This document shows, piece by piece, positions 7,438 to 27,547 of a stretch of 64,000 bases of DNA (positions are counted from its first letter, which is position 1; each line of letters starts with the position of its first letter). Under the pieces are notes generated by a model. That model searched no databases and was not told the DNA's origin. It was given only the letters and a program-made list of their open reading frames with translations. A program made the position numbers and the translations under genes. The stretch comes from a virus (taxonomy: Duplodnaviria > Caudoviricetes), in IMG/VR virus record IMGVR_UViG_3300029288_000080, positions 1-64,000 of that record. One strand, given 5' to 3'.

Positions 7438-7698
7438 TTACCCAATGCAGCCCGCAGCCACGCGGTTGGCCACGGGGCGGTAGTTGGCGTCGGGGCCCTT
7501 GAACGACAGGGCCACGAGGCTGTCGGCGTAGCCCTTGGTGATGGTTCTGAAGGAGTCGTCCATGCCCCACCGATTCGTCTCCCACAGGTAGAACTGGCCG
7601 TCCTGGCCCCGGATGACCTTGCAGTGATCCCAGACCGGGACCACCAGGTCGGCCACGACGGTGTTGATGCAGGGGGTCTTGGTGGTGCTGGTCTTCAT
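7438..7698 (-). CDS. hypothetical protein (probably leaderless)
   Basis: ATG 7 nt downstream of the -10 element. Confidence 0.55.
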   Translation of the reverse strand: MKTSTTKTPCINTVVADLVVPVWDHCKVIRGQDGQFYLWETNRWGMDDSFRTITKGYADSLVALSFKGPDANYRPVANRVAAGCIG

Positions 7699-7705
7699 AC
7701 CTAGA

Positions 7706-7746
7706 CTTGTAGCACCATGGATTGCGTTTGTCAATCTTTTATTTTG
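7706..7746 (-). promoter_or_regulatory. sigma70-type early promoter, copy 1 of a 39-bp repeat
   Basis: AAAATAAAAGA-TTGACA-17-TACAAG; near-identical to 10298..10336. Confidence 0.75.
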
Positions 7747-7791
7747 CTTTGTGTGGAATCGCGGCGACCAAGGGGTAGGTGAAACCCGAGG

Positions 7792-10295: not shown

Positions 10296-10336
10296 TGTGT
10301 AGCACCGTGGATTGCGCTTGTCAATCTTTTATTTTG
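10296..10336 (-). promoter_or_regulatory. sigma70-type early promoter, copy 2 of the 39-bp repeat
   Basis: TTGACA-17-TACACA with the same A-rich UP-like tract. Confidence 0.75.
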
Positions 10337-10371
10337 GGCGTGGGGAGAAAAAGAAGGCAGCGAGACGAAAA

Positions 10372-11715
10372 CTACTGGGCCTCGTCCTCCGTGATGATCG
10401 AGAGCTGCCCGCAGGCCGCCCCTGCGGTAATCTCAGCCTCGGTTGCCTGATCGTAGGCGTAGCCATCCTGTCGGTGAAGTGCAACACAATAACGGTGACT
10501 GACATCCCCGATGCCTGCAAGCTTAAAACTTCCCGAGACTCGGGTGGAAATTCGGGCTACATGGGTTCCGGCAAACTTTCCCTTGGGTACCACGGCCTTG
10601 ACGATGTCACCGGTGCGGAAGCCAAAATGTGTCGCTTGTCGGGTTCGGTGACGCACGGGAAAACCAAAACGGTCGGTCCCGCACATTCGTCGGGAACCGT
10701 GACCTGTGGCTTTAATTAATAGAGGCTTAGTTTCGGAATCCAAGACAACCGAGGCGCCAGAGCCCCCAACACAGGCAGCATCAATCCAGTGGGCCTTGGG
10801 ATAGTGTTGCTTGGCTCGATTGAATTTGGTCTGTGCGCCGGTGCCAACTTCTACCGAAAGTCCGGTGGAAGTCAAAACCGCTAGCAAAGCATTTCGCGTA
10901 GTGTTGACCGCCGAGGCATCGCGGAGCGGACGTTTCGCTTGGGCCAGGATTTTGGCCAGGACCGCTGGTTTGTTCTTCAAAAACATTTCGACGGGAAGCT
11001 TTCCTTTGCGTTCATTACAATCATGGCAAGCCAGCGTGAGGTTAGAAAGTCGGTTGCTGCCGCTCGACACTTTTGGAACAATATGTTCCACTTCAAAGGG
11101 AACATCCTTGGCCCCACAATAAGCACAGGTACGGTTCCATTTCTCCAGCAGGTATTCTTTGACCGTGTAGCCTTGCAGGGTACCCTGTTGGTATTCGGCG
11201 CCGGAAACTTCCGGGTTCTGCATCAGTTGCATATCAAACTTTATGCGTTCAACCGAAATACCCGTTACGTTGCAAAGTCGTTGGAACTTTTTCACCCACG
11301 TCATAATCGTGAGAACGCGGTGCTGAAGGCTTGGAGGTAACCAGCCTGCGGAACGAGTACGGTTAAGGAACCGTGGTTTACGATATCGGGTTTTCCGGTT
11401 ACGCCGGCTATGTCGGATAGTTTTCCTGGATTCCAACTTAGCTTTGATCGCGGAACCCCTGTGTTCTAACTCTGCCGCGAATAAAACTTTTCCTGCAGGC
11501 CCCACCAGCGCGATCCCGGTAACTTTGCTCCCAGGGTCAAGCTTAACCACCACGGGTGTAACGATTACTTCGGATTTTGTTTCCTTCAGGATAATGGTGA
11601 AGGGGTAGCGGCGCAACACTGCAGCCCTGCCCGACGAAAGCAGCGTCCTGGCTTCACCAGGATGCACTGGATCCAGTGGACGCCGATCATGGTCTAGTAC
11701 AAAACCCAGTTGCAT
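10372..11715 (-). CDS. iscB: IscB RNA-guided endonuclease
   Basis: PLDP (PLMP-like) N-terminus, RuvC-I LDPGSK, RHSRRNRKTRYRKPRF bridge helix, HNH (CAYC..EHIVP..N..LACHDCN), HWIDAA. Confidence 0.95.
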   Translation of the reverse strand: MQLGFVLDHDRRPLDPVHPGEARTLLSSGRAAVLRRYPFTIILKETKSEVIVTPVVVKLDPGSKVTGIALVGPAGKVLFAAELEHRGSAIKAKLESRKTIRHSRRNRKTRYRKPRFLNRTRSAGWLPPSLQHRVLTIMTWVKKFQRLCNVTGISVERIKFDMQLMQNPEVSGAEYQQGTLQGYTVKEYLLEKWNRTCAYCGAKDVPFEVEHIVPKVSSGSNRLSNLTLACHDCNERKGKLPVEMFLKNKPAVLAKILAQAKRPLRDASAVNTTRNALLAVLTSTGLSVEVGTGAQTKFNRAKQHYPKAHWIDAACVGGSGASVVLDSETKPLLIKATGHGSRRMCGTDRFGFPVRHRTRQATHFGFRTGDIVKAVVPKGKFAGTHVARISTRVSGSFKLAGIGDVSHRYCVALHRQDGYAYDQATEAEITAGAACGQLSIITEDEAQ

Positions 11716-11962
11716 CAAAAGATCTCTCCGCTCACGCGGGTAATGTTTTCCTCGCCGATGTCCGGGAAGCTTTTTACACGCAAGACCTTCGCGGTCTCCC
11801 CAGGGACCACAGCATGATCTTGCGCGACAGAGCCACGGACTGGAAAGCATCCGTAGGTGTCGTGACTTCTTGGACGTAGATCGAACAGGGTTACCCGTCC
11901 TTTCTCGGGCTGGTCATGAACAGGGGTTTCAAGCCCCCGAACATAGTCGTGGGGTTCATGAC
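10452..11962 (-). mobile_element. non-autonomous IS200/605-family IscB element
   Basis: removing 10452..11962 restores an in-frame ORF (L)DPRPLP-DQATEAE...; no tnpA present. Confidence 0.7.
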
Positions 11963-11983
11963 CGGGTAGTGGTCGTGGGTCCA
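11716..11983 (-). ncRNA. omegaRNA (HEARO-like) with about 21-nt 5' guide
   Basis: GTCATGAACCCC..GGGGGCTTG..GACCAG..CTACGT..GGATGCTTTCCAGTCC..ACATCGGCGAGG..ATTACC directly upstream of iscB. Confidence 0.85.
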
Positions 11984-11989
11984 GAGGGC

Positions 11990-12018
11990 ATAGTAAGACG
12001 AGTGGCCCCGGGAGTCAA
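11990..12018 (-). promoter_or_regulatory. sigma70-type promoter reading into omegaRNA/iscB
   Basis: TTGACT-17-TACTAT. Confidence 0.7.
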
Positions 12019-12045: not shown

Positions 12046-12067
12046 ACTGAAGAAGTTGTCGTGATGT
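12046..12067. repeat. inverted repeat, downstream arm bracketing the tRNA array
   Basis: ACTGAAGAAGTTGTCGTGATGT is the reverse complement of 18294..18314 with one extra A. Confidence 0.85.
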
Positions 12068-12082
12068 CAGGTGGGAAAGAAA

Positions 12083-12154
12083 CGGCCCAGGTAGGTGCTG
12101 CCCCCACTACTTTCCGGTTAACTGCCGGACACTCTGCTGGTGAGTTACTGAGCC
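12083..12154 (-). tRNA. tRNA-Asn(GTT), atypical (A33)
   Basis: TCCGG-CAGTTAA-CCGGA; T-loop GGCAGCA. Confidence 0.7.
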
Positions 12155-12157
12155 AGG

Positions 12158-12847
12158 CTAGTCGCGATATTTTTTGAAGTCACGGACAAAATTGGTTTTT
12201 ATTATACGTTGTCTCTCTTCCTCACTGGGTCGTGTGCGGTAGAACTTAGTGGAGCATGTTCTGTTGCAACATTTAGGGCGATTTTCGTGTACATTGTTTG
12301 CCATGTAATACCTGCGTTCCGCTTCAATGTGCTTGCCGCAAGCAGGGCAAACTACTTCTACCCACGCTGCCCCTTGCTGTTTTCCATGCTCCACGGCGTG
12401 TTCTCGTAGGGTCATGATAGTTAGGTTTTCCAACCTATTATCCAGTTTGTCTCCGTTGAGATGGTGGACTATTTCGTCGGATCGCAGCAGACGGCCAAGA
12501 TGCTGCTCCATGACGTACCGGTGTTCAAAAATGTACCGGCCTTCGATGTAGGTTCGGCCCAGATAACCTGGGGGCTTCTGCAACATCCAGCGGCCGTCGC
12601 TGCTGATGAGCCGTTCTTTCTTTCTCCCGATGCCAAGACGTTTCTTTTCTTTGGCGATTCTGGCAACGCGCTGCTTTTTTATCTTGACCTTGACTTCTTT
12701 GGGCACCCTGGTGGCTTCAGTGATGTCACGGACCCAGGTGCTCACCGACGACTTGGCCACCTGAAGGTGCTGGGCTATCGCCAGCAAAGTCCAGCCAAAT
12801 CGGCGCAGTTGTCTCGCTTGACCCATTTCTTTGGTTTTGCTTATCAT
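12158..12847 (-). CDS. HNH homing endonuclease with N-terminal HTH
   Basis: EHRYVMEQHLGR..VHHLNGDKLDNRLENL; AGGAGG SD. Confidence 0.9.
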   Translation of the reverse strand: MISKTKEMGQARQLRRFGWTLLAIAQHLQVAKSSVSTWVRDITEATRVPKEVKVKIKKQRVARIAKEKKRLGIGRKKERLISSDGRWMLQKPPGYLGRTYIEGRYIFEHRYVMEQHLGRLLRSDEIVHHLNGDKLDNRLENLTIMTLREHAVEHGKQQGAAWVEVVCPACGKHIEAERRYYMANNVHENRPKCCNRTCSTKFYRTRPSEEERQRIIKTNFVRDFKKYRD

Positions 12848-12910
12848 GTGAACCTCCTGGTAAAGATTAACGTGGAAGTTCACGTTCATTAGACCGAGGA
12901 GGCAAACCAA

Positions 12911-12982
12911 AGGGCCCTACCCGAGTCGGACGGGTATCTCGCCGGTCGTAGCGGCGGCTCTTTCCCCTTGAGTTAAGGGCCC
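12911..12982 (-). tRNA. tRNA-Arg(ACG)
   Basis: CGCCG-CTACGAC-CGGCG; GGGCCCT/AGGGCCC acceptor. Confidence 0.75.
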
Positions 12983-12993
12983 AGGAAATAAGA

Positions 12994-13066
12994 TGGCCGG
13001 AGAGGAAGTTGAATCCTCAGCCTCGGACGTAAGAAGTCCTTGCTCTGCCAGTTGAGCTATCCAGCC
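12994..13066 (-). tRNA. tRNA-Lys(CTT)
   Basis: GGAC-TTCTTAC-GTCC; canonical D-arm. Confidence 0.8.
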
Positions 13067-13078
13067 GTGGAAACTATC

Positions 13079-13160
13079 TGGTGCGCCGTACAAGACTCGA
13101 ACTTGTAAAAATTTTCCACTTTAGGAGAGTGGTGGGTTATTCCAATTTCCCTAACGGCGC
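13079..13160 (-). tRNA. tRNA-Arg(CCT) with encoded CCA
   Basis: CCACT-CTCCTAA-AGTGG; TTCGAGT T-loop. Confidence 0.85.
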
Positions 13161-13188
13161 AGGCAATATTATAATGAAATCAAACAGT

Positions 13189-13260
13189 TGGGGCCACCGG
13201 AGTACGATTCCGGGCAGCCAACTTAAAAGGATGGTATGCTCCCAATTACATCATGGCCCC
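13189..13260 (-). tRNA. tRNA-Lys(TTT)
   Basis: CCATC-CTTTTAA-GTTGG; T-loop ATCGTAC. Confidence 0.75.
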
Positions 13261-13279
13261 GTAGTTTTTGACTCGGGAC

Positions 13280-13567
13280 TCACGTTTCTTCCTGGTTGGC
13301 ATCGGGTTCCTCCTGGGTCTGTTCTTCCTGGTTGATCTCGGCCATGATTTCCGCCCGGGTGGGCCCTTCGGTGCGGCGCCGATGGCCCCCGCAGACAATG
13401 CAGGAGCAAGGCTTCCGGGCCGACAGATGCATCCTGACGGTCAAGTCCTCGACCTCCTGGGCCGTCTGGGTCTCAGTCTCGCTGATCCAGAAGATTTCGT
13501 GGGCCAGGCGGCGCCAGCGACGCTGCAGCCGAGTAACCTGGGCACGACGGAAATCTCTGGTCCTCAT
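13280..13567 (-). CDS. Arg-rich small protein with CSCxxC motif inside the tRNA array
   Basis: MRTRDFRRAQ..RKPCSCIVCG; own leaderless promoter. Confidence 0.7.
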   Translation of the reverse strand: MRTRDFRRAQVTRLQRRWRRLAHEIFWISETETQTAQEVEDLTVRMHLSARKPCSCIVCGGHRRRTEGPTRAEIMAEINQEEQTQEEPDANQEET

Positions 13568-13602
13568 GGGGACATTTTACCAGTGGCCTCAGGGGATGTC
13601 AA
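13568..13602 (-). promoter_or_regulatory. sigma70-type promoter, leaderless
   Basis: TTGACA-17-TAAAAT, 6 nt to ATG 13567. Confidence 0.8.
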
Positions 13603-13604
13603 GA

Positions 13605-13678
13605 AGGGCCTGGCCGGATGTGCGCCGGCGACCAACGGTTTAGAGGACCGCCGTTCTATCTTGCTGAACTACAGGCCC
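13605..13678 (-). tRNA. tRNA-Arg(TCT), C33
   Basis: GCGGT-CCTCTAA-ACCGT; T-loop CGCACAT. Confidence 0.75.
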
Positions 13679-13683
13679 AGAAC

Positions 13684-13771
13684 AGGAGGATACTGGATTT
13701 GAACCAGTGGAGGCTTTGGGGCCTCTCCGGGTAGCAGCCGGATCGCTTAAACCTGACTCGCGCAATCCTCC
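13684..13771 (-). tRNA. tRNA-Ser(GCT)
   Basis: TCCGG-CTGCTAC-CCGGA; long variable arm. Confidence 0.9.
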
Positions 13772-13776
13772 AAAAG

Positions 13777-13850
13777 GGTGGACGACCGAAGTTGAATCGG
13801 CAACCTCTGCGTTCACAGCGCAGCGCTCTAACCAGTTGAGCTACGTCCAC
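13777..13850 (-). tRNA. tRNA-His(GTG)
   Basis: CTGCG-CTGTGAA-CGCAG; C73. Confidence 0.9.
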
Positions 13851-13851
13851 A

Positions 13852-13923
13852 AGCGGCTGGGGAACAACGATTTCCCACCTTGGGGGCGGAGGCCCCAAAT
13901 GCTGCCAATTACACCACAGCCGC
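13852..13923 (-). tRNA. tRNA-Gly(TCC), C33
   Basis: TGGGG-CCTCCGC-CCCCA; GCG/CGC acceptor end, U73. Confidence 0.75.
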
Positions 13924-13935
13924 AGAAACAAAAAG

Positions 13936-14008
13936 TCGGGAATGCCGGAGTCGAACCGGATCCTAAAGATCCCAAATCTTTCGTGCAACCACTTACACCT
14001 CATTCCCG
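13936..14008 (-). tRNA. tRNA-Pro(TGG)
   Basis: AAAGA-TTTGGGA-TCTTT; C1-G72, A73. Confidence 0.9.
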
Positions 14009-14013
14009 AGATA

Positions 14014-14850
14014 CTATTTATTTTTATTTCGTCTCCGCAGGTCACGTGTCGCCTTGGCGTGTGCCGCACGACATTCTGGACACCTACATTTTCTATAGTG
14101 GTAGTTGGAGTTAGTACCGTGTACTTGGGGTTTTGCTGGTCTTCCGAGAGGACCTTTGCCTGTGTAGTATTTAGCGGAGCATTTTCTGGAGCAAAAATGG
14201 TGAACACCGCGAAAGAATCGTCTGCTTCGTGTGAAGGGAGCACCGCACTGCTCGCAGGTCGTGGTCACCCACGCATCAGGATGGTGCCGCTTTTTATGTT
14301 CTGCATTGTCCGCGAGTAACTCTAGGTTTTTGATGTGGTTATTGCGCTTATCCCCATCTATGTGGTGCACGGTCTCTTCGTCGGTTAGGTCCCGCCCGAT
14401 GTACCGTGACATGACGTAACGATGCTCCAGCACCCTCCCACGTTTGTCAGCCATTGGGTGGCCCGGCACCAAGATGTACACATAGTCACCAACACCCGAA
14501 CTTTCGGTCTTGAACCCCAGGACATATCTAGACCAGCGGGTCCGTTTATTGGTTCCTGGTCTAGGACCTTGCCCCAGCGATAGATTTTTGCGCGACTGCT
14601 CTTGATTATTTTCCCAGTTTTTCTTGCCCCACGCTACTCGGAGTTCTCGGGGAACGGCACGCCCGATCTTGGCGGCGTTGTCTCGCCGTTTTTGCATGAG
14701 CCGTTCCTGTTGTTCCGGAGTCAACACGATGTCGCGCAGCATGTAACTTAGGGTGCTGCGGCCAATGCCGAGTCGGGCATGGATTTCTTTGTAACTGTAG
14801 CCTAGGAGGCGGAGAGCACGGGCTTCTTTTCTGAGTGGGTGGGGCTTCAT
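14014..14850 (-). CDS. HNH homing endonuclease with N-terminal HTH
   Basis: EHRYVMSRYIGR..VHHIDGDKRNNHIKNL; Zn fingers. Confidence 0.9.
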   Translation of the reverse strand: MKPHPLRKEARALRLLGYSYKEIHARLGIGRSTLSYMLRDIVLTPEQQERLMQKRRDNAAKIGRAVPRELRVAWGKKNWENNQEQSRKNLSLGQGPRPGTNKRTRWSRYVLGFKTESSGVGDYVYILVPGHPMADKRGRVLEHRYVMSRYIGRDLTDEETVHHIDGDKRNNHIKNLELLADNAEHKKRHHPDAWVTTTCEQCGAPFTRSRRFFRGVHHFCSRKCSAKYYTGKGPLGRPAKPQVHGTNSNYHYRKCRCPECRAAHAKATRDLRRRNKNK

Positions 14851-14935
14851 GGCGGGTTTTCTCCTGGGAGGAGTTGTCCTCCACTAGAGATTAACGTCAT
14901 GCGGACCTACGTGTTCCCGTGCCCAACCGATTCTT

Positions 14936-15007
14936 TTCCGCTGCCAGGATGCGCGCCTGGAACAAGGCTTTCAGAGAGCCCCGTGTTACTGGTTACACCA
15001 CAGCGGA
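14936..15007 (-). tRNA. tRNA-Gln(CTG)
   Basis: GGGCT-CTCTGAA-AGCCT; U1-A72. Confidence 0.8.
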
Positions 15008-15011
15008 TCAG

Positions 15012-15083
15012 TGTTGGCTAACGGAGTCGAACCGATATCTGGGCGGTATGGGCACCCTATGCTTGCCATTACACCAAGCCAAC
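15012..15083 (-). tRNA. tRNA-Met/Ile2(CAT), C33
   Basis: GGGTG-CCCATAC-CGCCC. Confidence 0.75.
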
Positions 15084-15087
15084 GGAA

Positions 15088-15159
15088 AGCTGGTGGCCGG
15101 GGATGATCCGGCGGCTCCTGGTTACGAAGCAGGTGCTTTCCCAGTTAAGCGACACCAGC
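15088..15159 (-). tRNA. tRNA-Thr(CGT)
   Basis: CCTGC-TTCGTAA-CCAGG; T-loop ATCATCC. Confidence 0.75.
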
Positions 15160-15162
15160 GCA

Positions 15163-15234
15163 AGCCGACACCCGGGTCTGGGCCGGGACCGCAGCCGTAC
15201 CGGGGCTGCATTCTGCCAGTTAAACTATGTCGGC
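15163..15234 (-). tRNA. tRNA-Thr(GGT), C33
   Basis: CAGCC-CCGGTAC-GGCTG; T-loop CCCAGAC. Confidence 0.75.
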
Positions 15235-15238
15235 GAGA

Positions 15239-15313
15239 AGCACCGGGCAAGATTTGAACTTGCGATAAACGGAGGTTGCAGCTCCGCCCCTTCGGCCACT
15301 CGGGCACCGGTGC
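15239..15313 (-). tRNA. tRNA-Cys(GCA)
   Basis: CGGAG-CTGCAAC-CTCCG; U73. Confidence 0.9.
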
Positions 15314-15324
15314 AAGAATCAAAA

Positions 15325-15395
15325 TGGAGCATAAAAGAATCGAACTTTTATTTCCACGGTGCGGACGTGGTGTTCTCCCATTGAACGAATGCCCC
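15325..15395 (-). tRNA. tRNA-Ala(CGC), C33
   Basis: CCACG-TCCGCAC-CGTGG; G3:U70 identity pair. Confidence 0.85.
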
Positions 15396-15399
15396 AAGA

Positions 15400-15471
15400 A
15401 GCGGATTACGGGGTGCGCGCCCGTGCCTGAACCCTGGCAAGGTTCTGTGCTGCTGATTACACCAAATCCGC
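15400..15471 (-). tRNA. tRNA-Gly(GCC)
   Basis: GAACC-TTGCCAG-GGTTC; U73. Confidence 0.8.
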
Positions 15472-15475
15472 GTGA

Positions 15476-15559
15476 CGGTGAGAAGGAGAGTCGAACTCCT
15501 GTGGGGTTGCCCCCGCGCGGGGTCCAGCCGCGTGCCATAGGCCACTAGGCGATCTCACC
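15476..15559 (-). tRNA. tRNA-Ser(GGA)
   Basis: CGCGG-CTGGACC-CCGCG; long variable arm; G73. Confidence 0.85.
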
Positions 15560-15563
15560 AGAG

Positions 15564-15635
15564 TGGGTCCATCCCGCGTTGCACGGGAATCACAGGATCT
15601 TCAGTCCCGCGCTTTACTCTTTAAGCTATGGACCC
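15564..15635 (-). tRNA. tRNA-Phe(GAA)
   Basis: CGGGA-CTGAAGA-TCCTG. Confidence 0.8.
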
Positions 15636-15640
15636 ATGGA

Positions 15641-15731
15641 CGGTGGGTGCAGGGTACGATCCTGCAGAACCCCGATCAAGAGGTTCACCTACGTTCGAAA
15701 TAGGCGCCTTATCCATTTCAGCCAACCCACC
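15641..15731 (-). tRNA. tRNA-Ser(CGA)
   Basis: CCTAT-TTCGAAC-GTAGG; long variable arm; G73. Confidence 0.8.
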
Positions 15732-15734
15732 AGA

Positions 15735-15805
15735 CGGGCCTAACGAGAATCGGACTCGTGTCTCGCGGTAGACAGCCGCGCAGGATACCACTACCCCATA
15801 GGCCC
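15735..15805 (-). tRNA. tRNA-Asp(GTC)
   Basis: CGCGG-CTGTCTA-CCGCG; G73. Confidence 0.8.
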
Positions 15806-16780
15806 AACCGACGTATACCACCAGAAATGTCGTACTCCTGGTGTGCAGTTTTGTCTTTCTACTTTCCCGGCGTACACCTTCGCCCAATAACCTGCCTTGG
15901 GCGTCTCTATACTATAGTTTCTGCACCATTTGACGACTGCGTTGCCGCTTACGCCGAAATAAGTGGAAATGGTACTGATCGGCTGCTCCCACACGAGTCG
16001 TCCGAGCACTACGCTACTGGGGCGCTGTGTTTTTCTACTATTTTTACCAGCACACGTGTACGAGCAATATTTAGCCGCACCATTACCTTCTTTATTTCTG
16101 AAGTGTTCACCACAGGTTAAACAGATAGGTAGAGTAGTGCATTTCTCCGCGTTGGACTTCGCCCTATACTGTTGCGTCCTACTGGGTTGACACTTTTTAG
16201 TGCAATATATTTGTTTAATACGCTTTGTTTTATACTTTGTTGCACACGTAGGACACGTTTTTATTGTGTACTGTTCGGTGTATTGCTCTTCGTTTTTCTT
16301 TTTTATGTTTTTACCCGCGAATGTTTTGGTTTGCGTATGGCAGTTGGGACAAAGTAGACTCAGGTTTGCTAGTCTGTTGTCATTACGCACACCATTTATA
16401 TGATGTAGTTGCAAAGTCAGTGGCATGTCGTTCCACGTGGGTAGCAGGCCACAAGCGGCGCATTTGTTATCCAGCAAGCCTACAAATAGTATTTTACTTT
16501 TTAAGTCGCTATTAGCAGTGCATGCTGAGTGTTCTACGAGAACAGAAGAAAGGCTTTGCATTACTGTTTTGCGGTCTGCGGGTTTTCGTTGGTAGAAGTG
16601 ACTTGTGTCCACCCCTTGTTTTCGCGCACGCTGCCTAATTGTGGCAGCGGTCGACCCTCCTGACCCACCGTAGCCCAGGTCAAGTCTTGCTGTATTGAAA
16701 CTATTGTTGCGTGCGATGACGGCGGCGAACGCTTCATTGCTCAACGCCCAGATCGTGCTGCGCTTCGCTCTATTGGCCAT
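15791..16780 (-). CDS. HNH homing endonuclease, multi-Zn-finger, C-terminal HTH
   Basis: LQLHHINGVRNDNRLANLSLLCPNCHTQT; stop lies inside tRNA-Asp. Confidence 0.9.
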   Translation of the reverse strand: MANRAKRSTIWALSNEAFAAVIARNNSFNTARLDLGYGGSGGSTAATIRQRARKQGVDTSHFYQRKPADRKTVMQSLSSVLVEHSACTANSDLKSKILFVGLLDNKCAACGLLPTWNDMPLTLQLHHINGVRNDNRLANLSLLCPNCHTQTKTFAGKNIKKKNEEQYTEQYTIKTCPTCATKYKTKRIKQIYCTKKCQPSRTQQYRAKSNAEKCTTLPICLTCGEHFRNKEGNGAAKYCSYTCAGKNSRKTQRPSSVVLGRLVWEQPISTISTYFGVSGNAVVKWCRNYSIETPKAGYWAKVYAGKVERQNCTPGVRHFWWYTSVGPMG

Positions 16781-16859
16781 GGTACAGACACCCGTGGGCA
16801 GTCTTTGCCCACTATAAGTTAAGGTGTCCTGGACACTTGAACCGAAACATGAAAAAGAA

Positions 16860-16940
16860 TGGCGAGGGCTGGATTTGAACCAGCAAAGCCGAAGCGTCCG
16901 ATTTACAATCGGATGGGTTAAACCGTTTCCCTACCTCACC
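16860..16940 (-). tRNA. tRNA-Tyr(GTA)
   Basis: TCCGA-TTGTAAA-TCGGA; variable arm. Confidence 0.9.
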
Positions 16941-16955
16941 GAAAATCAGAAACAA

Positions 16956-17031
16956 TGCCTGCGGGCAGAGTCGAACTGCCAACTACGGCTGTCTGAGAAC
17001 CGCTCCTCTAGCCTATTTGGGATACGCAGGC
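16956..17031 (-). tRNA. tRNA-Leu(CAG), short variable loop
   Basis: CGGTT-CTCAGAC-AGCCG; A73. Confidence 0.8.
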
Positions 17032-17036
17032 AAACA

Positions 17037-17070
17037 TGGTCCCGGCTGGACGCGACCCAGCACATTGACA
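17037..17070 (-). pseudogene. 3' remnant of a tRNA (T-arm plus acceptor 3' strand)
   Basis: GCTGG-GTCGCGT-CCAGC-CGGGACCA; no anticodon arm upstream. Confidence 0.45.
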
Positions 17071-17081
17071 CCTCTGTTCGT

Positions 17082-17912
17082 CTACCGCGACGAATGTATT
17101 CCATATTGTCTACACCATTTAGCGACGGTATTGTCTGATACTTTAAATATTTTTGCTATCTTTTTGAAAGATTTTTCAGCGACTAACTGTTGTAGTTTTT
17201 CTGCGGAAGGTCTAGCCACCTTTCTCCGAGATATTTGTGCACACTCCTGTGAGCAATATACTTGTTTTTTGAATAATGCGTCAAAGGTAGCCCCGCACCG
17301 CGGACATTTTTTAACCTTCATGCTCATAAGGGAGAGACGCTTCTTTTTATATGTATTTTTTACTCGCTTTATCCAGCGCAGAATGTACGCTTCGTCTACG
17401 TTGGGTTGCTGACCTGCCATTTGTTGCACGGTAACGGCCGTATCTTTTTCGGCTTTGTAATACGTGCGGCTGTCTTCATAATACACCGCTATTTTTCCTA
17501 TTTTCTTCCCCACCCTAGCCGCCCCATATGCCCCCTTGCATCTGTTTCCGCAAAAAGGACCCGCCATCTTTCTACGCTGCTGTTCCCACAATACGCGTGG
17601 GAGTTGCTCAAAATTTCTACCGCACCACACACATTGTACCTGCGTCATTACACAGCGTAGGCTGTCGTCAGCACTGTGTCGTCCATTAGGAACAATGCGT
17701 AGATTGCTCCAAGCATTATCCGTAAAGTCCCCATTTATGTGGTCTATCGTTTCCGTTTTACGGTCTAACTCCCGGTTGAGCAGTACCTCCACCAAGAATT
17801 TAGGATACGATTTGACCGTTCGCCGCCCGTCTTTAAAATAGACGACGATGTTTTTCCGCCCACTTCCACGGTCAGTGTATGGACCGTAGATATTGGAAAT
17901 TTTTCCACGCAT
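17082..17912 (-). CDS. HNH homing endonuclease, C-terminal HTH
   Basis: ETIDHINGDFTDNAWSNLRIV; AAGGAGG SD. Confidence 0.9.
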   Translation of the reverse strand: MRGKISNIYGPYTDRGSGRKNIVVYFKDGRRTVKSYPKFLVEVLLNRELDRKTETIDHINGDFTDNAWSNLRIVPNGRHSADDSLRCVMTQVQCVWCGRNFEQLPRVLWEQQRRKMAGPFCGNRCKGAYGAARVGKKIGKIAVYYEDSRTYYKAEKDTAVTVQQMAGQQPNVDEAYILRWIKRVKNTYKKKRLSLMSMKVKKCPRCGATFDALFKKQVYCSQECAQISRRKVARPSAEKLQQLVAEKSFKKIAKIFKVSDNTVAKWCRQYGIHSSR

Positions 17913-17971
17913 GGTGCGAACCTCCTTAGCATTTCATTCTACACTAATAGATTAAGGTGGTTGCACTGAAG

Positions 17972-18045
17972 TGGTCCGGGCGGGACTTGCACCCGCAGAA
18001 ACATGGCCCTCGACCATGCGCGTCTGCTGATTGCGCCACCGGACC
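17972..18045 (-). tRNA. tRNA-Leu(GAG), short variable loop, C33
   Basis: CATGG-TCGAGGG-CCATG; A73. Confidence 0.8.
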
Positions 18046-18064
18046 AAACTGCACGAAACGTGTC

Positions 18065-18136
18065 TGGGCAGTATCGGGATTGAACCGATGATCTTCCGGG
18101 TGTTGACCGGATACTCTCCCACTGAGCTAACCGCCC
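18065..18136 (-). tRNA. tRNA-Val(AAC), C33
   Basis: TCCGG-TCAACAC-CCGGA; Val-like GGGCGGTTAGCTCAG body. Confidence 0.85.
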
Positions 18137-18140
18137 TGGA

Positions 18141-18213
18141 TGTGCCTGGAGGAACTTGAATCCCCATAGTACCGCCTATCGAGCGGTCGCCTTACCTATT
18201 AGGCCACAGGCAC
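18141..18213 (-). tRNA. tRNA-Ile(GAT), C33
   Basis: ACCGC-TCGATAG-GCGGT. Confidence 0.8.
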
Positions 18214-18221
18214 GTGGTCAA

Positions 18222-18288
18222 CAGCCCACTGGAGGATCGAACTCCACCGATGACCTTTGGAGGGTCGTCTGCACCCAGTGCGTGGGCT
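18222..18288 (-). tRNA. tRNA-Trp(CCA) with minimal D-arm
   Basis: GACC-CTCCAAA-GGTC; D-arm GCAC-TGG-GTGC; G73. Confidence 0.8.
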
Positions 18289-18293
18289 AATCT

Positions 18294-18314
18294 ACATCAC
18301 GACAACTCTTCAGT
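18294..18314. repeat. inverted repeat, upstream arm bracketing the tRNA array
   Basis: ACATCACGACAACTCTTCAGT is complementary to 12046..12067. Confidence 0.85.
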
Positions 18315-18324
18315 TTTCAAAGCA
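18311..18324 (-). promoter_or_regulatory. rrn boxA-like antitermination element
   Basis: TGCTTTGAAAACTG resembles rrn leader boxA (e.g. TCTTTGAAAACT). Confidence 0.6.
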
Positions 18325-18488
18325 GCCAATCAATCCACCGAGGGGGTCCTGGCGGGCCAGGGAACAGTCGTGACCATTCCATGGGTTCCACCAGGGCGGT
18401 GCCGTCAAGGTCCCTACTCGTCGCCTCCCATCCTGTCTCCCTCTCGACCTCCGCGCCTCGGCATCCATCGGGGCCCTTTGTGGGCCAG

Positions 18489-18526
18489 AAAACAAAAAAG
18501 CCACCCGAGATTTCTCTGGGGTGGCT
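18489..18526 (-). terminator. intrinsic terminator (attenuator) upstream of the tRNA array
   Basis: AGCCACCC-CAGAGAAATCTC-GGGTGGCT followed by TTTTTGTTTT. Confidence 0.9.
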
Positions 18527-18568
18527 CCGGTTCGGTCGTTTCGTCTAGGTCATCCGGGAGCCACCCCG
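18518..18568 (-). promoter_or_regulatory. antiterminator helix, mutually exclusive with the terminator
   Basis: GGGGTGGCTCCCGG (18567-18554) pairs with CCGGAGCCACCCC (18530-18518). Confidence 0.85.
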
Positions 18569-18708
18569 TTCGGATCGCAGGACAGATAATTGTGCGAAAA
18601 CCAACTATCATGTCCTGCGGTAATTGGGCACATGGTACGCCCGAGACCCTGGGGGCAACCCGTGCCCTGGGGCTTCTGCGTCGTGACCATGTGGACTTTT
18701 CTCAACAT
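18550..18708 (-). CDS. attenuator leader peptide, 52 aa (below the ORF-track cutoff)
   Basis: MLRKVHMVTTQKPQGTGCPQGLGRTMCPITAGHDSWFSHNYLSCDPNGVAPG*; last codons cover the antiterminator strand. Confidence 0.75.
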   Translation of the reverse strand: MLRKVHMVTTQKPQGTGCPQGLGRTMCPITAGHDSWFSHNYLSCDPNGVAPG

Positions 18709-18743
18709 GCAGTACCAGTACCTTGCCCCGACGGGTCCGTCAA
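18709..18743 (-). promoter_or_regulatory. sigma70-type promoter for leader and tRNA array, leaderless
   Basis: TTGACG-17-TACTGG (imperfect -10), 6 nt to ATG 18708. Confidence 0.6.
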
Positions 18744-18812
18744 GGGGTTTTTACTGTTTTTCGTGTAGTAATTTGGTTTGGTGGTCCCCAGACCGTTCGC
18801 TGACGATATTTC

Positions 18813-18847
18813 TTGACTTCCTGGTGGTAGACCGGTAAAATCCTTCC
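18813..18847 (+). promoter_or_regulatory. divergent sigma70-type promoter
   Basis: TTGACT-17-TAAAAT, 6 nt to ATG 18848 (10-codon uORF). Confidence 0.75.
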
Positions 18848-18905
18848 ATGGTGCGGTCGAGGTTGACCGCAGCGCCTTGAGGGTTCAGGGCTACAGGAGC
18901 GACAG

Positions 18906-19553
18906 ATGTACGGTGTGGAACGCCCACGGCTATTTTTCCCCCGTTTGCTCGCGCTGGGCCAAGAGGTCAAGAGCGCCAACGGTTCAGTACCGCTGTACCG
19001 ACTTGGCTGGGAACAGTTCGACGCTGCCTTGGCTGCACCCACAGTACCGGCCACAGGCTTAGTTACTCCCCGGCCTCAAACAAGGCCCTCGCTACTCTGT
19101 GCTCCACGCAAAACCTGGTTGGACATGTTGATCTACGCGGTCCCCCAGCACTACCGGGTTGAAATCCGTAGGTGCTGTCGCGAAGCCGTAGCAGAACGTG
19201 AACGTCATCTCCCGTTTCCCAAACAAGTCAAGGACCAGATGCACCGTAGCACTGAAGCTCTGGTTCACATGGCCCTGTTCTTGACCGCCGATTGTCTCTA
19301 CGACACCATGGCCAACCGCTACTCCCGCGGCCCCGACCGTTGTGTGGTTCTACCTTGTCTACTGCTTCGTTTTTGGGAGCATCAGGTCACTACACCTAAT
19401 GGTGCTGTTGATCTATGTGGAGTGCTGTACAACGAGCCATTGCAAGGCCGAAACCCGGCGGAGCAAGAAATTTTTGCAACATTACGCGCCGAGGTGACCC
19501 AGCGGCGACTTGAAATGCAACAAGCACAAAGCACAAACGGAAAGGACGCCTAA
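18906..19553 (+). CDS. hypothetical protein
   Basis: AGGAG SD. Confidence 0.6.
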   Translation: MYGVERPRLFFPRLLALGQEVKSANGSVPLYRLGWEQFDAALAAPTVPATGLVTPRPQTRPSLLCAPRKTWLDMLIYAVPQHYRVEIRRCCREAVAERERHLPFPKQVKDQMHRSTEALVHMALFLTADCLYDTMANRYSRGPDRCVVLPCLLLRFWEHQVTTPNGAVDLCGVLYNEPLQGRNPAEQEIFATLRAEVTQRRLEMQQAQSTNGKDA

Positions 19554-19555
19554 AT

Positions 19556-22500
19556 ATGATAACGTTAGTGGCAGCCATACTATTCGCAGCCGCCGTATTA
19601 TTCGTAGCAGGAGCGCTCGAAAGACTCGACGGTAAGTGCATCTCGCACGCACGACTTTTGCGGGCGCCACCGCTTCCCAGAGACCTAACGACGCACGCAC
19701 ACGCGCAAAACGCAAACACGGCAAGGGCGGAAAAATATAGTTTGGCAGAGGTCGCCGAAATTGTGGACTGGCTGGATGAAAGCTAGAAATAGAACCAGGA
19801 CTATTGAAACTTCAAACCCAAAGTATGGCCGGCACGCTTCGGCGCCGAGCAATAGAAAATGTGGCTCGTGCCATCCAAACAGTTACCTGACGAAAGGACA
19901 CGAATCATGACGCCGGCATGGTGGAAAACCTATCGGGAAATTTTGCTAATGAAGACCAAACGACGTGGCTTTGAGGTAACGTTGAAGCCAGTAGTGTCGT
20001 GTCCTAACCTAGACCCCGACATCTGGGCGCGGGACCAGCATGGCGCGATCATGGTGCTGCGCCAAGGGTGTGAAAAAGGTGTCAAATGATCGATGCCGTG
20101 TCTACTGTCCTGCTTGGGCTGGGCGTACTTATTGTGTTGAACTTGCTAATGGTTATGCTTTATATGGTTGCGCATAAAATTTGCTACTGGTTGCAGTGGT
20201 GCTGGAGACAAGTGTACAGGCGCGACTATCATAATTTTAACAGGAATAATCCTACGGAGTCACCTCCGATAAGCAACAAACAGGAAAAGGAAGGCTAGAC
20301 AATGACAAATGAATTTCACACCGATACGTCTTCTATGTCAGTGGACATCTTTGGCCGCTGCTCTATGCAGGGCACGGAAGTAACTTATAAAGCGCAGCAC
20401 TCCAAGGTGATGGTGCAGTTTGAGCCACAGGCAAACGGCCGCTGGCGAGTCTTCATTGACCCGTTCCAAGATAAGCAGTCAGACCCTCCTCGCGTGATCC
20501 CCGACGATCTCCTAGTAGTGCACAGCGTAGAGACTCCTAACAAAAGCCGCCCTAAAGCGGGCAGCGTGTTACGGGTGCTACGGGTAGCAGGAGTGGAAGA
20601 CGATAACGAAGTACACCAGGCCACTTATATAGGAACCCGCTGGATTGATGTCGTGGTGGAGACCTTAGACGCCAAGTTTAGTTACACTGACAAAACCATC
20701 GTGATTGGAGCCCTGTCATGACCAAAAAACAATTGGCAAAATGGAAGCAGCAGATGCAAGAAATTGCGGCAGGCGGTGACCCGGAGATCGCGCACCCTAG
20801 AGCCGATGACTTGCTTTGCGCTATCCTGCGTGAACTCGGTGCTGGGGAAGTAGCAGATATTTTTGACGCCATGGACAAGTGGTATGTGCAGCTACAGGAG
20901 GACTAGCTATGACCCTAGAAATACAGCGAGGGCTGCTTGAGATCGTAGAGCAACGTAGTCGTCGTGATTTTAGACGCCAGTACGAGGAACGCTTTCCGAA
21001 TGATCCTCTTCCACCTGGATGCGATGATTCGGAGACACGGCCGCTTAACCTTCCATGGCCATTGATCCCAGAAGATCTGGAGGATTAGCCATGAGCGTCG
21101 AGACTACAGGCATGGGCAGGCTCAGGTTCACTGCTCATTATTTCTGGAACCTGATTTGGCATGGACGTTGGGCAGATCTGGCTAACGCGGTAAGTGAGAA
21201 ACTCCACTACGGCACTATACCACCGGACCGTTGGCTGTTCCCTTATTTCGCCGCTGACTACTTGCTGCCGCGCCTGCGGGCCATGAGAGCGTGCAACACA
21301 AAACCACCACGAAGTCTTGTGAGCCTTGACTCCCCAGATGAGTGGCACCAGACCCTGGATGATATAATTTTCGCCTTTGAAACGGTCTACGCCGCCGTCC
21401 CCCTGGCCAGCGCAGATGGAAGCGTGGATATCTTGGACGAACTCACCAGCGAGCGGGTGCTGCGAGGTTTTGCACTGTTCGGTAAACACTTCATACACCT
21501 ACATGGCTAACGACATGAAACAAGAAGCTAACCCACTACAGTGGTATAGGTTAAGCCTGCGTCTGATCATGGTCAGAGCTGGCTTGGCCACTATAGACGC
21601 TGACGGCAAAATGACGCCCACAGCGAAAGGAAACCATTTATTCCGTCCCCAGTTTTGGAGCAGTGCTGAATTTCAAGGTAAGGATGGGAAGGAAAAATCA
21701 CTGTGATGGAAGAAACCACAAACCCAAAAACGGCGGACCAGCAGTGTATCAAACCAGTACCAACACTGGCCTTCCTTTACCCACAAGGTGTTGATGATTA
21801 CGAAGTGTTGTGGCACCGACGACTCAGTTGTTACCATGACAACAACCAACGACGTTCTGCGCGGCCTGAAGGTTAAGTTACCCGTGTTTATTTTCATCTA
21901 TGCTGTCGTTACCACTATGGCGGTATTCCTGTGCAGTGTGTACTTACAAAACGGTTGGTCTCTGCTCAGCCCCTTTGTTATGGCTGCGCTTATGCTGACT
22001 ATGCTGGCACACCAACACCGACTCATTGTCACTAAACGTAGGTGCAAGGAGCAGCTCCGTCAAACCAAGTGGCTGATGAAACATTTGCACGATGCCGTGC
22101 TGTGCAAACGCCGCTACCGTACCTGTCTGGATCAAGAAGTGTCAGACGTACTGACTGGTCGCAAGGAGTTGTAGGGCCGGCCATGGATACCCTTATTTGC
22201 CTTGTGCCACTTATTTGTTTCTGGCTGCTTGTTTGGCCGTACTGCCGCTACAAGGGAGATGAGTAATGAGCAAACGTAAATTCGCCGTCATCATGACAAT
22301 TGTGTTTACACTAGCGTTATTGACGGCTGCACTTAGCTTCTGGCTAAAGGTGTATTTCCACAACCACGTGTTGCACTAAATAGGGCATACCAATCGCCAA
22401 AGGACGCAGCTATGAAACAAGAAAAAGCAAACTCCACGGACAGCGATTACTCCAACCTTCTCGCCAAGGCCAGAAAGGAGAATAAGGAGCCGTGGTTGGC

Positions 22501-23430
22501 AAAGTTAGAAACCATATGTAGACCAACCACAGAAATTGAAGTACACGAGATGAAGTTCCGCTTGATTGGTATAGGAGACGCCATGCAGCGCATGGCTGAG
22601 CTGCGCCGGGACTGCAAAGAAGAAGTGGTACTACTGTGCAAGCGACTTTACGTGTGTACCGAGAACCCGTTTTACTTGGCACTTGGTACTGCCTGCGCCG
22701 CCGATGACCAGATAACGCGCTACGAAGACGAATTAGGTAAGTGCTTAGTCGATGGAGTGTCGACTGACTGGAACGCCAACCCAGACCACGAAAGGAAATA
22801 ACCGTGAACATGACAACCACCAATCGAGAGGTCACCAAGGAAGAGCAAGAGTTACAAAAGCATGTGCAGCATGAACTAGTGACAAAACTGATCGCCGAGG
22901 TGGCTCACTGGCTGGACTCTTGGATACGTTGCAACGGTATCACAGTAAGCACCGAACAATGTTTTCAGGGTTTAGTGATCGCAACGCTACGTCATTGTCA
23001 GGCCGCAGTCATTGAGACAGGAGATTTAGGGTTGCTTGGGGCTATAGACGCGGAACTGCTGAAGCGAATGGGTATCCCTAAATTACCACTCACACTAACA
23101 GAGGCGTCAGAAAAATTGCAGCGCCTGAAGTACGGAGAATAAACCATGAACCCAGACACCAACAAATTTGAACAACTCCATACTGCACTACAAACCGAAG
23201 TTGAAGCGCTGACGCTAAAGGCAAAAGCCGGGATAGAAAAAGCCAGCGCTACTTTGGTACGGCCCAATGGCCAACCTGTACCAGAGACCTGGACACAGTT
23301 TCAGACCGGTGAAACCGTCGTGATCAAGAACTACACCTTCAAGGTCGCGTACATCGGCGAGACTGCCATCCTGTTCGAGCCGGTCGGCCCCGTGCTGGTG
23401 GGCCAGGAGGAAGACGATGCCTTGCTATAG
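19556..23430 (+). other. run of small co-oriented hypothetical ORFs (19556, 19859, 20086, 20302, 20718, 20909, 21091, 21788, 22412, 22804, 23146), several with TM segments
   Basis: tight spacing and SD motifs; visibly more A/T-rich than the flanks. Confidence 0.55.
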
Positions 23431-23539
23431 TAATGGTGGAACGTGTTGGTTCTGCAACATCCGTAAAGGTACCCATTGGGCCTGGGACTGGCTGGTGTGC
23501 CAACAGTGCTGGCACGACTGGTTGGACTAAGGAGCGAGA

Positions 23540-24383
23540 CATGGCTACACAATTCCACACTGTAGTAATTCCACTTGGCACTACCACAACCAAACGTACC
23601 TGTGGTAGCTGTCACTTCTACGGTGACGTTGCCACCGGCGATGGACTGGTCTGTGATCTTTTTGGCGCAAAACTTAGTGGCGGTGCCTCTGCCCCGGTGT
23701 CCAGATGTAGGCGTTGTACCGACCGCGCCGTATTGGATAACTTGTCGCCTACGCTAGCGCTAAAAGAGGGCAACCCGCAGCGCATAGCCCTCAAACTGCG
23801 GTGCACTGACAAACTATGCCACCACTGTAAATTCAAGAGCCAAGATGGCCATTATCGCTGTGATTTATTCCACGAAAGACTTATGATAGACCATCCCGCT
23901 GGGACTGACTTTCTGCGACTCGATGCTTGTTTAGCTAGCGACAGCACTTACAGATCTACATGCACTAAACAAAACGACCGCTTCAAGACTGCTGCTGATA
24001 TCTGTGCCGCACTCATGACCCGGAACGGTCAGCAGCACTGGCTAATTCAGCACCGTGTGGTGCCGGTACGGTTCAAAGAGATCACGCCAGATAAGTGGAG
24101 GATAAGTATTCCGGTGTATCAGGACAACCCAGAAATACCACTTGTCAGGGTTAGCCCTGGCGACCTTCTGGTTGTCTCCACCCGTGAGTACCGAAACGGC
24201 CCAGATCTGGTTGAGACGCTCTACCCCATGGTAGTCTGCAGTGTAGAGCTGTCAAAACTAGAGGAAACGCGCTACGGCTGTGTGTTCCACCAGCCCTACC
24301 TTATTGCAGAAGCGAATCAGCTACCTGGCGATCTCGCCACAGCCAATGGCGTAGTCAGCCAAACCGAGCCAGAAATTTTCTAG
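23540..24383 (+). CDS. Cys-rich hypothetical protein with two CxxCxF..CDLF repeats
   Basis: AAGGAG SD before ATG 23540; CGSCHF..CDLF and CHHCKF..CDLF. Confidence 0.6.
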
Positions 24384-24400
24384 GTAAAAGGAGCACATCT

Positions 24401-25033
24401 ATGACTTTGATCACTAGAGAAACCTACAACGCCATACTAGAAGGTGAATCTGCCAAACGTCGTGCCGAGGCACCACCTAGAGGACTAGCAGAAGGCCAAG
24501 AGATAATTGTGGAAGGTAGGGCGGCCAACCGTCAGGCGGAAACCGAAGTGGGCGAGCCGAGGCGGCAAAGACGGCTCAAGGTCATCACGGCTGACCCAGA
24601 ACCCGCATGGTTCAATGTGGACGAAGCAGAAGCGGCGCGTTGTGGAGAGGTAGCAGGCGCGTACTGCAACATCGCTGACGTGCTGGTGGAAGATCTAGAA
24701 GACCTCTTCGTGGCCGGGGTGAACAAGCTGCCTAAGGTGAAGCGGCGGGGCAGGGTTAAGAACCAAAGCAAGACTTGGAACCGGCTGTTCGCTTACCTCT
24801 GTGCCGCGTGGACCAAGGGGTGCAGGATCGGCACCATGTACTTGACCAGGGCGAAGACGGGCCGGCTGGTCCTACAGATCCCTCTGCGCTGGCACATCAG
24901 TGAAGAGAACTTCAAAGAGCTGGCCCGGATCCTTCACACCACCGAAGCCGAGGCGGCACCAGAGGTCGCCGCGTTCATGGCCGAAGCAGAAGGCCGTGGT
25001 GGCCACAATGAAACCAGTGACGGAAAGAGGTGA
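24401..25033 (+). CDS. hypothetical protein
   Basis: AAGGAG SD. Confidence 0.6.
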   Translation: MTLITRETYNAILEGESAKRRAEAPPRGLAEGQEIIVEGRAANRQAETEVGEPRRQRRLKVITADPEPAWFNVDEAEAARCGEVAGAYCNIADVLVEDLEDLFVAGVNKLPKVKRRGRVKNQSKTWNRLFAYLCAAWTKGCRIGTMYLTRAKTGRLVLQIPLRWHISEENFKELARILHTTEAEAAPEVAAFMAEAEGRGGHNETSDGKR

Positions 25034-25036
25034 GAC

Positions 25037-25351
25037 GTGACTGACCCTACCCCTAAGCAACGGTTCGTTGACAAATTCTGCGCCGAGTATGAACTAAACC
25101 ATCAGGAGTTTGACGCCAAGTACAGTACCATTCCTGGCAAGGTGCGGCTGGACACCGGAGAAGTGGTGCAGTGGCAGATCGTGCGGTGTGTTGACCTGCT
25201 TCAAGTCACGACACACCGTGTATGCAGCAGCGATAGGCTTCCTGGAGTCAGGCTTCTCAGTTACAACGTACACGGTATCAATCCCTTGGTTTATTGTGAC
25301 CTCACAAACTGGCCCTACAGTACTGATCCGAGTAGTTGTTGCGGGTGTTAA
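25037..25351 (+). CDS. hypothetical protein
   Basis: GAGGTG SD. Confidence 0.5.
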   Translation: MTDPTPKQRFVDKFCAEYELNHQEFDAKYSTIPGKVRLDTGEVVQWQIVRCVDLLQVTTHRVCSSDRLPGVRLLSYNVHGINPLVYCDLTNWPYSTDPSSCCGC

Positions 25352-27541: not shown

Positions 27542-27547
27542 GGGTTT

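Follow-up and report, generated by a model that had tools for sequence, protein, structure and literature searches.

How is a long array of transfer RNA (tRNA) genes in a phage set up for transcription and trimming? We analyzed a window of 64,000 nucleotides (nt), the first 64 kb of the 177.6-kb IMG/VR phage record IMGVR_UViG_3300029288_000080 (Caudoviricetes; estimated to be ~70% complete), which carries an array of 26 tRNA genes. We propose that this array is probably built as a transcription and processing unit in the style of a ribosomal RNA (rRNA) operon, with a boxA element in its leader and a long-range helix that joins leader to trailer. The original prediction had held that the array borrows the antitermination and processing machinery of the host rrn operons; it finds support in the match of the boxA to a bacterial spacer motif, in the register that the helix shares with bacterial rrn helices, and in the absence of half an arm from a related contig, L046, that has no leader. 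The elements on which the proposal turns are as follows.

18348..18396 (approximate), minus strand: hairpin (CCTGG-CCCG-CCAGG) in the minimum free energy (MFE) fold of the leader, a candidate boxB-like stem-loop ~25 nt upstream of boxA
18306..18322, minus strand: boxA, CTTTGAAAACTGAAGAG, the sole copy in the 177.6-kb genome
18294..18314, minus strand: 5' (leader) strand of the long-range helix, ACUGAAGAGUUGUCGUGAUGU; it opens with the 9 nt that close boxA and ends 5 nt before tRNA-Trp
12911..18289, minus strand: array of 26 tRNA genes, from Trp to Arg(ACG), found with ARAGORN, Rfam and relaxed ARAGORN
12083..12154, minus strand: tRNA-shaped element, the last of the array, with 21/21 cloverleaf pairs and an MFE fold that is an exact 7/4/5/5 cloverleaf
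12046..12067, minus strand: 3' (trailer) strand of the long-range helix, ACAUCACGACAACUUCUUCAGU, 15 nt past the tRNA-shaped element

On the plus strand, positions 12046-12067 read ACTGAAGAAGTTGTCGTGATGT and positions 18294-18314 read ACATCACGACAACTCTTCAGT. As had been described, the two are reverse complements: they form 21 Watson-Crick pairs, with one extra, bulged base in the downstream arm, and RNAduplex extends the helix to 23 pairs with two bulges. Every tRNA of the array lies on the minus strand; ARAGORN called 24 of the 26, while Rfam and relaxed ARAGORN supplied Lys(TTT) at 13189-13260 and Gly(GCC) at 15400-15471. The acceptor stem of tRNA-Trp begins at 18288, in agreement with an upstream arm placed 5 nt before the first tRNA. 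The companion statement places the downstream arm 15 nt after the last tRNA; it is correct only when the tRNA-shaped element at 12083-12154 is counted as one, since the last canonical tRNA of the array ends at 12911. The pair consists of complementary stretches of the same strand that bracket the genes, and it exceeds the minimum of about 17-20 bp looked for in a leader-trailer helix; for comparison, E. coli 16S rRNA requires a leader-trailer helix of more than 17 bp (PMC10250234). A promoter running across the upstream arm was considered and rejected: its spacer would be 20 nt.

How exceptional is the pairing within this genome? When 3550 windows on both genome strands were scored as partners of the upstream arm, the best non-self partner was the trailer, at -34.0 kcal/mol; the runner-up scored -26.7, and the mean was -15.5 (standard deviation 2.6). 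Genome-wide, neither arm has a better partner than the other arm. The trailer strand is free of local structure in the fold, and the arm motif is absent elsewhere in the 177.6-kb genome. A census of inverted repeats (exact runs, at most one bulge) returned no pair of 21 or more in eight dinucleotide-shuffled genomes, and in the real genome it returned, besides the arm pair, one further unrelated pair of 22. Because that other pair exists, the arm pair draws its significance from its placement at both ends of the array. Chance complementarity would be compatible with an analytic expectation of ~0.15 such pairs in 177 kb, with the presence of the other pair of 22, and with BLAST-type scoring, which puts the arm pair level with a 14-mer. 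It is nevertheless a most improbable account of arms that lie so close to the two array ends (5 and 15 nt), one of them overlapping the sole boxA, a joint placement estimated at <1e-5. The other pair (22 matches, one bulge) links window positions 44524-44546 to genome positions 129875-129896, 85 kb apart in GC-rich, coding-looking stretches, and is probably meaningless.

The boxA and the helix in Terriglobia

What kind of element stands in the array leader? It lies on the array strand, 17-33 nt upstream of the first tRNA of the 6.2-kb array, and the upstream arm does overlap TGCTTTGAAAACTG, as had been claimed, the first four arm bases being shared. The earlier description of a boxA-like element is backed by bacterial sequences: the phage 17-mer matches at 16 of 17 positions a motif, CTTTGAAAACTGAATAG, that recurs in the 16S-23S spacers of Terriglobia, and at all 17 positions a copy in G003, an unpublished Terriglobia metagenome-assembled genome (MAG). 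At up to one mismatch the 17-mer was found in 20 of 201 Terriglobia genomes, with 21 matches in comparison to 7 for the reversed control, and 13 of those 21 are the single variant CTTTGAAAACTGAATAG. At five of the 12 Terriglobia loci examined, the motif stands 170-260 nt upstream of the 23S rRNA 5' end on the same strand, which is the position of the spacer boxA. Terriglobia spacers also carry a hairpin at a comparable distance before boxA. Judged by its sequence, then, the phage motif is a genuine boxA of the Terriglobia type.

The same motif also precedes bacterial repeat arrays. In the Terriglobia genome G200 (L049, 1501-1517) it is followed after 15 nt by a CRISPR array whose 36-nt repeat occurs at least 21 times, and in G003 (L048, unpublished) it precedes CRISPR-like repeats, the distance in the two genomes being 15-20 nt. 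BoxA elements before CRISPR arrays and long non-coding RNAs are on record in the literature (PMC7862264, citing Stringer et al.; PMC5725501), and the boxA in the CRISPR leader of G200 fits this published role. The CRISPR spacers of G200 and G003 gave no match to the phage. The link to rRNA emerged only from the search with the boxA 17-mer restricted to the class Terriglobia. We rejected the idea that the phage leader is a verbatim copy of a host rrn leader: a 19-mer gave 11 matches in GTDB species representatives, G003 among the genomes matched, and none of the 11 lies beside rRNA. Separately, the 19-mer TTTGAAAACTGAAGAGTTG lies 3 nt after a long-arm tRNA gene in a Coriobacteriia genome (L040, 537-647, a Raoultibacter MAG) and may be a further boxA-type site adjoining a tRNA.

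Is the spacer boxA of Terriglobia likewise joined to a long-range helix? We compared the bacterial helix in two genomes, the contig of a third having ended ahead of the trailer. In G068 the leader sequence ACTGAATAGTGTGGCGTC pairs with GACGCCACACTATTCAG, 40-60 nt past the 23S gene, and in G034 the leader sequence ACTGAATAGTACGGCGTC pairs with GACGCCGTGCTATTCAGT in the 23S trailer. In both genomes the paired leader stretch consists of ACTGAATAG plus 9 nt, and between them two positions are changed on both strands, each change compensating the other. The 5' strand of the outer pre-23S helix, as predicted from these sequences, starts inside the boxA 3' end in both operons. The phage arm starts at the homologous ACTGAAGAG, and its helix overlaps boxA in the register that G068 and G034 show.

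The phage array and the Terriglobia rrn operons thus resemble each other in the boxA (16/17), in the 5' helix strand that begins in the boxA 3' end (ACTGAA...), in the complement that follows soon after the last enclosed gene, and in an outer helix (bacteria, 17-18 bp; phage, 21-23 bp). They differ in what is enclosed, 26 tRNA genes and four endonuclease genes in the phage instead of 23S, and in the size of the loop, 6.2 kb as compared with ~3 kb. Moreover, the phage array lacks an inner helix at the mature ends, its helix is unrelated in sequence outside boxA, and it is borne by a phage.

Relatives and the origin of the arms

Which relatives share the two arms? The phage is distant from cultured jumbo phages, with ~27% identity in terminase and portal. 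Copies with both arms were found in L005, L009 and L047. Other relatives are 84-90% identical to the right of position 18850, and to the left of it their DNA is unrelated. Protein queries with a flanking 215-aa open reading frame (ORF), a spurious ORF across the leader, and an HNH protein of the array yielded identical copies, relatives without an array at the site, or distant arrays without the helix. Megablast and blastn searches for a diverged relative with both arms gave no match at all in cultured phages; IMG/VR contained neither the arm 21-mer nor the anticodon arm of the tRNA-like element; and the tRNA-Trp 20-mer had five matches in JGI metagenomes, all attributable to chance. G001, whose portal is 57% identical, carries no tRNAs, and G002 has only the radical SAM gene in common with the phage.

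The relative that bears most directly on the origin of the arms is L046, an NCBI contig of ~84% identity that is collinear with the window reverse strand from 33789 to 5207. Two features shared with it define the downstream part of the array:

13574..13602, minus strand: internal sigma-70-like promoter, TTGACA-17-TAAAAT with TG, the top promoter-like site of the region, kept in L046
13280-13567: small ORF (MRTRDFRRAQ...) inside the array, conserved with L046

L046 is without window positions 13602-28570, and thus without the big array and its leader. Its homology to the window begins exactly at the -35 box of the internal promoter, and it keeps this promoter (13602-13574), the small ORF and a mini-array of five tRNAs, the last two being canonical Asn(GTT) and Val(CAC). 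The promoter stands at the head of an ancestral 3' sub-array common to the window and L046. Because promoter and small ORF are conserved, we regard the 3' part of the array as an older operon upstream of which the larger block from Trp to Arg(TCT) was added. Five nt past its mini-array, L046 reads GACATCACGACAACTC, matching the downstream arm over its first 14-15 nt, and then CCCCCGAT where the window reads TCTTCAGT; in other words, the boxA-complementary half of the arm is absent. The 21 kb of L046 contain no complement to the arm core and no boxA.

Each arm can accordingly be divided in two. In the window, the first 14 nt of the downstream arm are ancestral flank, and the last 8 nt are complementary to the boxA 3' end. 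On this comparison the upstream arm joins the boxA 3' end to a complement of the ancestral flank core, and the downstream arm joins that core, common to L046, to a complement of the boxA 3' end that L046 lacks. A single inverted duplication would be insufficient to produce this arrangement, because either the 9 nt of the clade-specific boxA or the 14 nt of the ancestral flank would have to arise by chance. Construction from both sides, or decay of the unneeded half in L046 after the leader was lost, is what selection for pairing predicts.

Could the repeat instead be a neutral footprint of DNA rearrangement, a patch of ~21 nt copied in inverted orientation, functionless as a repeat, next to a boxA that may or may not work alone? 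The locus is a hot spot of rearrangement, with three architectures among close relatives in addition to HNH and IscB insertions; the arms are perfect Watson-Crick complements with sharp edges and no G-U pair, similarity of the flanks being nil beyond the arm borders, where it stops sharply; and the other pair of 22 in the genome has no plausible role. We still judge this account unlikely, given that each arm holds a part older than the repeat (boxA in one, the core shared with L046 in the other), so that one inverted copy does not suffice, and that the 5-nt and 15-nt placement and the register common to the bacterial rrn helices would have to be coincidences.

The original prediction had offered a mobile or invertible cassette as its alternative, and neither form is borne out: no recombinase, transposase, target-site duplication or flipped assembly was found. 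An invertible switch, in which the 21-bp repeats flip the 6.2-kb array relative to its leader, would account for inverted repeats that flank a cassette with the promoter outside. We regard it as scarcely tenable, since no serine or tyrosine recombinase gene (PF00239, PF00589) was found in the 177.6 kb, four independent assemblies (window, L005, L009 and L047) show the array in a single orientation, and repeats of 21 bp with an indel are short for an inversion by homology. That the arms are the terminal inverted repeats of a mobile tRNA cassette would suit their length of 21-22 bp around 6.3 kb of cargo and the absence of the array from this site in relatives. This possibility, too, carries very little weight: there is no target-site duplication and no transposase inside, where only HNH genes occur; the indel borders relative to the relatives fall at 18850 and 13602 and not at the arms; and L046 keeps the downstream core without the element.

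Similarly, the arms could be sites for a DNA-binding protein at both array ends, such as an ancestral operator ahead of the following promoter, duplicated so that the array can be regulated or looped. L046 retains the downstream core, which lies ~28 nt ahead of a conserved -35 box, and the HNH proteins of the array contain helix-turn-helix domains (Pfam). The site, however, is not palindromic, no promoter follows the upstream copy, the motif is found nowhere else in the genome, and the extension of the repeat into boxA would be left unexplained. We consider such a role very unlikely.

Proposed mechanism and points against it

We propose the following mechanism for an rRNA-style unit. The nascent leader would bear a boxA of the type found before 23S rRNA and CRISPR arrays in Terriglobia (Acidobacteriota). 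By analogy with rrn operons, NusB and NusE(S10) would bind this boxA and bring the other Nus factors to RNA polymerase, and the polymerase would then resist Rho-dependent termination over 6.2 kb of largely untranslated RNA. The 5' strand of a 21-23-bp helix would comprise the final 9 nt of boxA and the 12 nt behind them. If the factor-bound leader is kept with the polymerase, it could meet the trailer as the trailer emerges, and this meeting could hold even after RNase P has cut 5 nt downstream of the leader strand. The helix would be long enough for RNase III, would define and protect the ends of the precursor, and would set the array apart from the unit of omega RNA and IscB behind it. The phage fragment yielded no RNase III gene, so cleavage by this enzyme would need that of the host. 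From sequence comparison and analogy we infer that Nus factors load, that transcription reads through the region of the internal promoter, that the helix forms in vivo and is cut by RNase III, and that the host is acidobacterial.

Several known systems share parts of this design. The nut sites of phage lambda comprise boxA and boxB and work with the N protein, using host-type boxA and Nus factors for antitermination. Lambda needs its own N and regulates mRNA operons, whereas the array described here would yield stable RNA closed by a helix, with no N-like factor known. In E. coli rrn operons (boxB-boxA-boxC), as in the phage, boxA stands beside the leader strand of a long-range helix, which in E. 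coli is cut by RNase III (PMC10250234, PMC4807359, PMC5725501). Relative to E. coli, the phage boxA matches GYTCTTTAANA at 8/11 positions, no boxC was found in the phage leader, and the boxB-like hairpin is only a candidate. The boxA of CRISPR leaders (Stringer et al., as cited in PMC7862264; G200, L049) is likewise placed ahead of a long, untranslated, highly structured RNA of many units, so as to sustain its transcription; unlike the phage array, CRISPR arrays lack a leader-trailer helix, and Cas nucleases free their units. Finally, dense blocks of tRNA genes are known from T4-type clusters and bacterial tRNA array units, with homing endonucleases inside the blocks in phages (PMC6409571, PMC5966550, PMC8421152). 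Our literature search found nothing that links boxA to phage tRNA arrays: of the papers on tRNA arrays that it returned, none names boxA except PMC9025141, where it occurs twice in passing. The search also found no published rRNA-precursor-like layout around a phage tRNA block, although these papers were not checked for enclosing helices.

A number of observations weigh against an rRNA-style unit. The phage's other tRNA clusters show no such helix or boxA, nor do the arrays of phages L026 and L033. All copies with both arms (L005, L009, L047) are 100% identical to the window, and for this reason the phage helix offers no direct covariation. The phage boxA agrees with the consensus GYTCTTTAANA (PMC5725501) at only eight of 11 positions, no better than chance in a 200-nt leader, this being a gamma-proteobacterial consensus. 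It also lacks the GAT that precedes the motif in bacterial spacers, and it lies downstream of a leader terminator (~18490-18524), which it could thus not help the polymerase to pass. The assignment of a host is affected as well. The Mycoplasma detection primer GTTCTTTGAAAACTGAAT targets the rRNA spacer. This primer resembles the phage motif (PMC3019172), as does a cyanobacterial spacer boxA with D4, GAACCTTGAAAA and CTGCATA (bioRxiv 10.1101/2021.01.08.426015). Because similar boxA cores occur in these other phyla, the assignment to Acidobacteriota is tentative.

The geometry of the transcript raises further objections. The strong, conserved internal promoter (13602-13574) may give rise to many trailers on leaderless transcripts, and four translated HNH genes lie within the loop. 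In addition, RNase P is expected to cut 5 nt past the leader strand long before the trailer is made. Because of this early cut, the mechanism requires the Nus-bound leader to stay with the polymerase, a behavior that has been proposed for rRNA. PMC4807359 and PMC10250234 are on related subjects.

Array contents, neighbouring genes and implications

The remaining elements of the region comprise the endonuclease genes within the array and a unit immediately downstream of the helix.

17082-17912, 15791-16780, 14014-14850 and 12158-12910, minus strand: four HNH_3 homing-endonuclease ORFs within the array (Pfam)
Window 14014-14850; L021 2028-2843; L026 1551-2387; L029 10001-10483; L033 2849-3568: HNH_3 genes adjoining tRNA-Pro(TGG)
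11990-12018, minus strand: promoter TTGACT-17-TACTAT, downstream of the helix (promoter scan)
11740-11962, minus strand: HEARO/omega RNA (Rfam RF02033, 104.8 bits)
10372-11850, minus strand: IscB (Pfam RRXRR and HNH)

In several phages that are otherwise unrelated, the tRNA array has an HNH_3 homologue (45-56% identical) directly upstream of tRNA-Pro(TGG), which suggests a homing-endonuclease lineage tied to this tRNA gene. The tRNA-shaped element at 12083-12154 has the anticodon loop CAGUUAA, with anticodon GUU and A33; its D loop has no GG, its T loop is GGCAGCA, and all of the conserved D- and T-loop bases are absent. It was not called by ARAGORN, even at a 70% threshold, nor by Rfam. The element occupies the slot of the canonical Asn(GTT) and Val(CAC) genes in L046, and its 5' half aligns with the Val gene; it may be a working odd tRNA, a decoy or a relic.

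The promoter, omega RNA and IscB (10372..12018) form the downstream neighbour of the array and lie outside the helix. L046 (7840-8724) is an empty site for this IscB element (window 10300-12018): in L046 the promoter, TTGACT-17-TATACT, drives a 264-aa radical SAM gene. The window is without the 53 nt that hold the ribosome-binding site and start codon of that gene, and the omega RNA and IscB stand in for 774 nt after ...CACTACCCGGTC, such that the captured radical SAM promoter is now directed at the omega RNA. Since the omega RNA and IscB replaced the 774 nt there, the guide of the omega RNA consists of radical SAM coding sequence, identical to that of L046 at 34/34 positions. A link between the IscB element and the arms was considered and rejected: the guide shares with the arm only a 9-10-nt patch of the CACGAC type, and the arm is 84 nt outside the element. 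We also note a dispersed intergenic repeat of ~40-60 nt that follows several genes in both orientations (window 7683-7747 and 10300-10336; genome 173230-173281 and 148346-148369; L046 8854-8916 and 10949-11007), one of the window copies lying just beyond the IscB stop codon.

What would an rRNA-style array mean for phage biology? Large phages carry dozens of tRNA genes, and we know of no work addressing how a structured, untranslated tRNA transcript of 6 kb escapes Rho and is trimmed. To our knowledge, very few phages are known for Acidobacteriota. It is conceivable, if rather doubtful, that phage tRNA arrays framed by both a leader-trailer helix and a boxA of host type constitute a widespread and unpublished class, in which phages copy the solution of rRNA and CRISPR transcripts, the Nus-bound leader rides with the polymerase, survives RNase P and closes the precursor kilobases later, the helix insulates the array from the inserted IscB omega RNA unit, and boxA marks the host clade, here Acidobacteriota. 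If the proposal for this array is true, the phage reuses two devices of the host rRNA operon, boxA with its Nus factors and the leader-trailer helix, by a mechanism that is directly testable. The boxA could then serve as a sequence marker for the hosts of uncultured phages, pointing in this case to Terriglobia, and the arrangement suggests a compact design rule for the expression of long non-coding RNA arrays.

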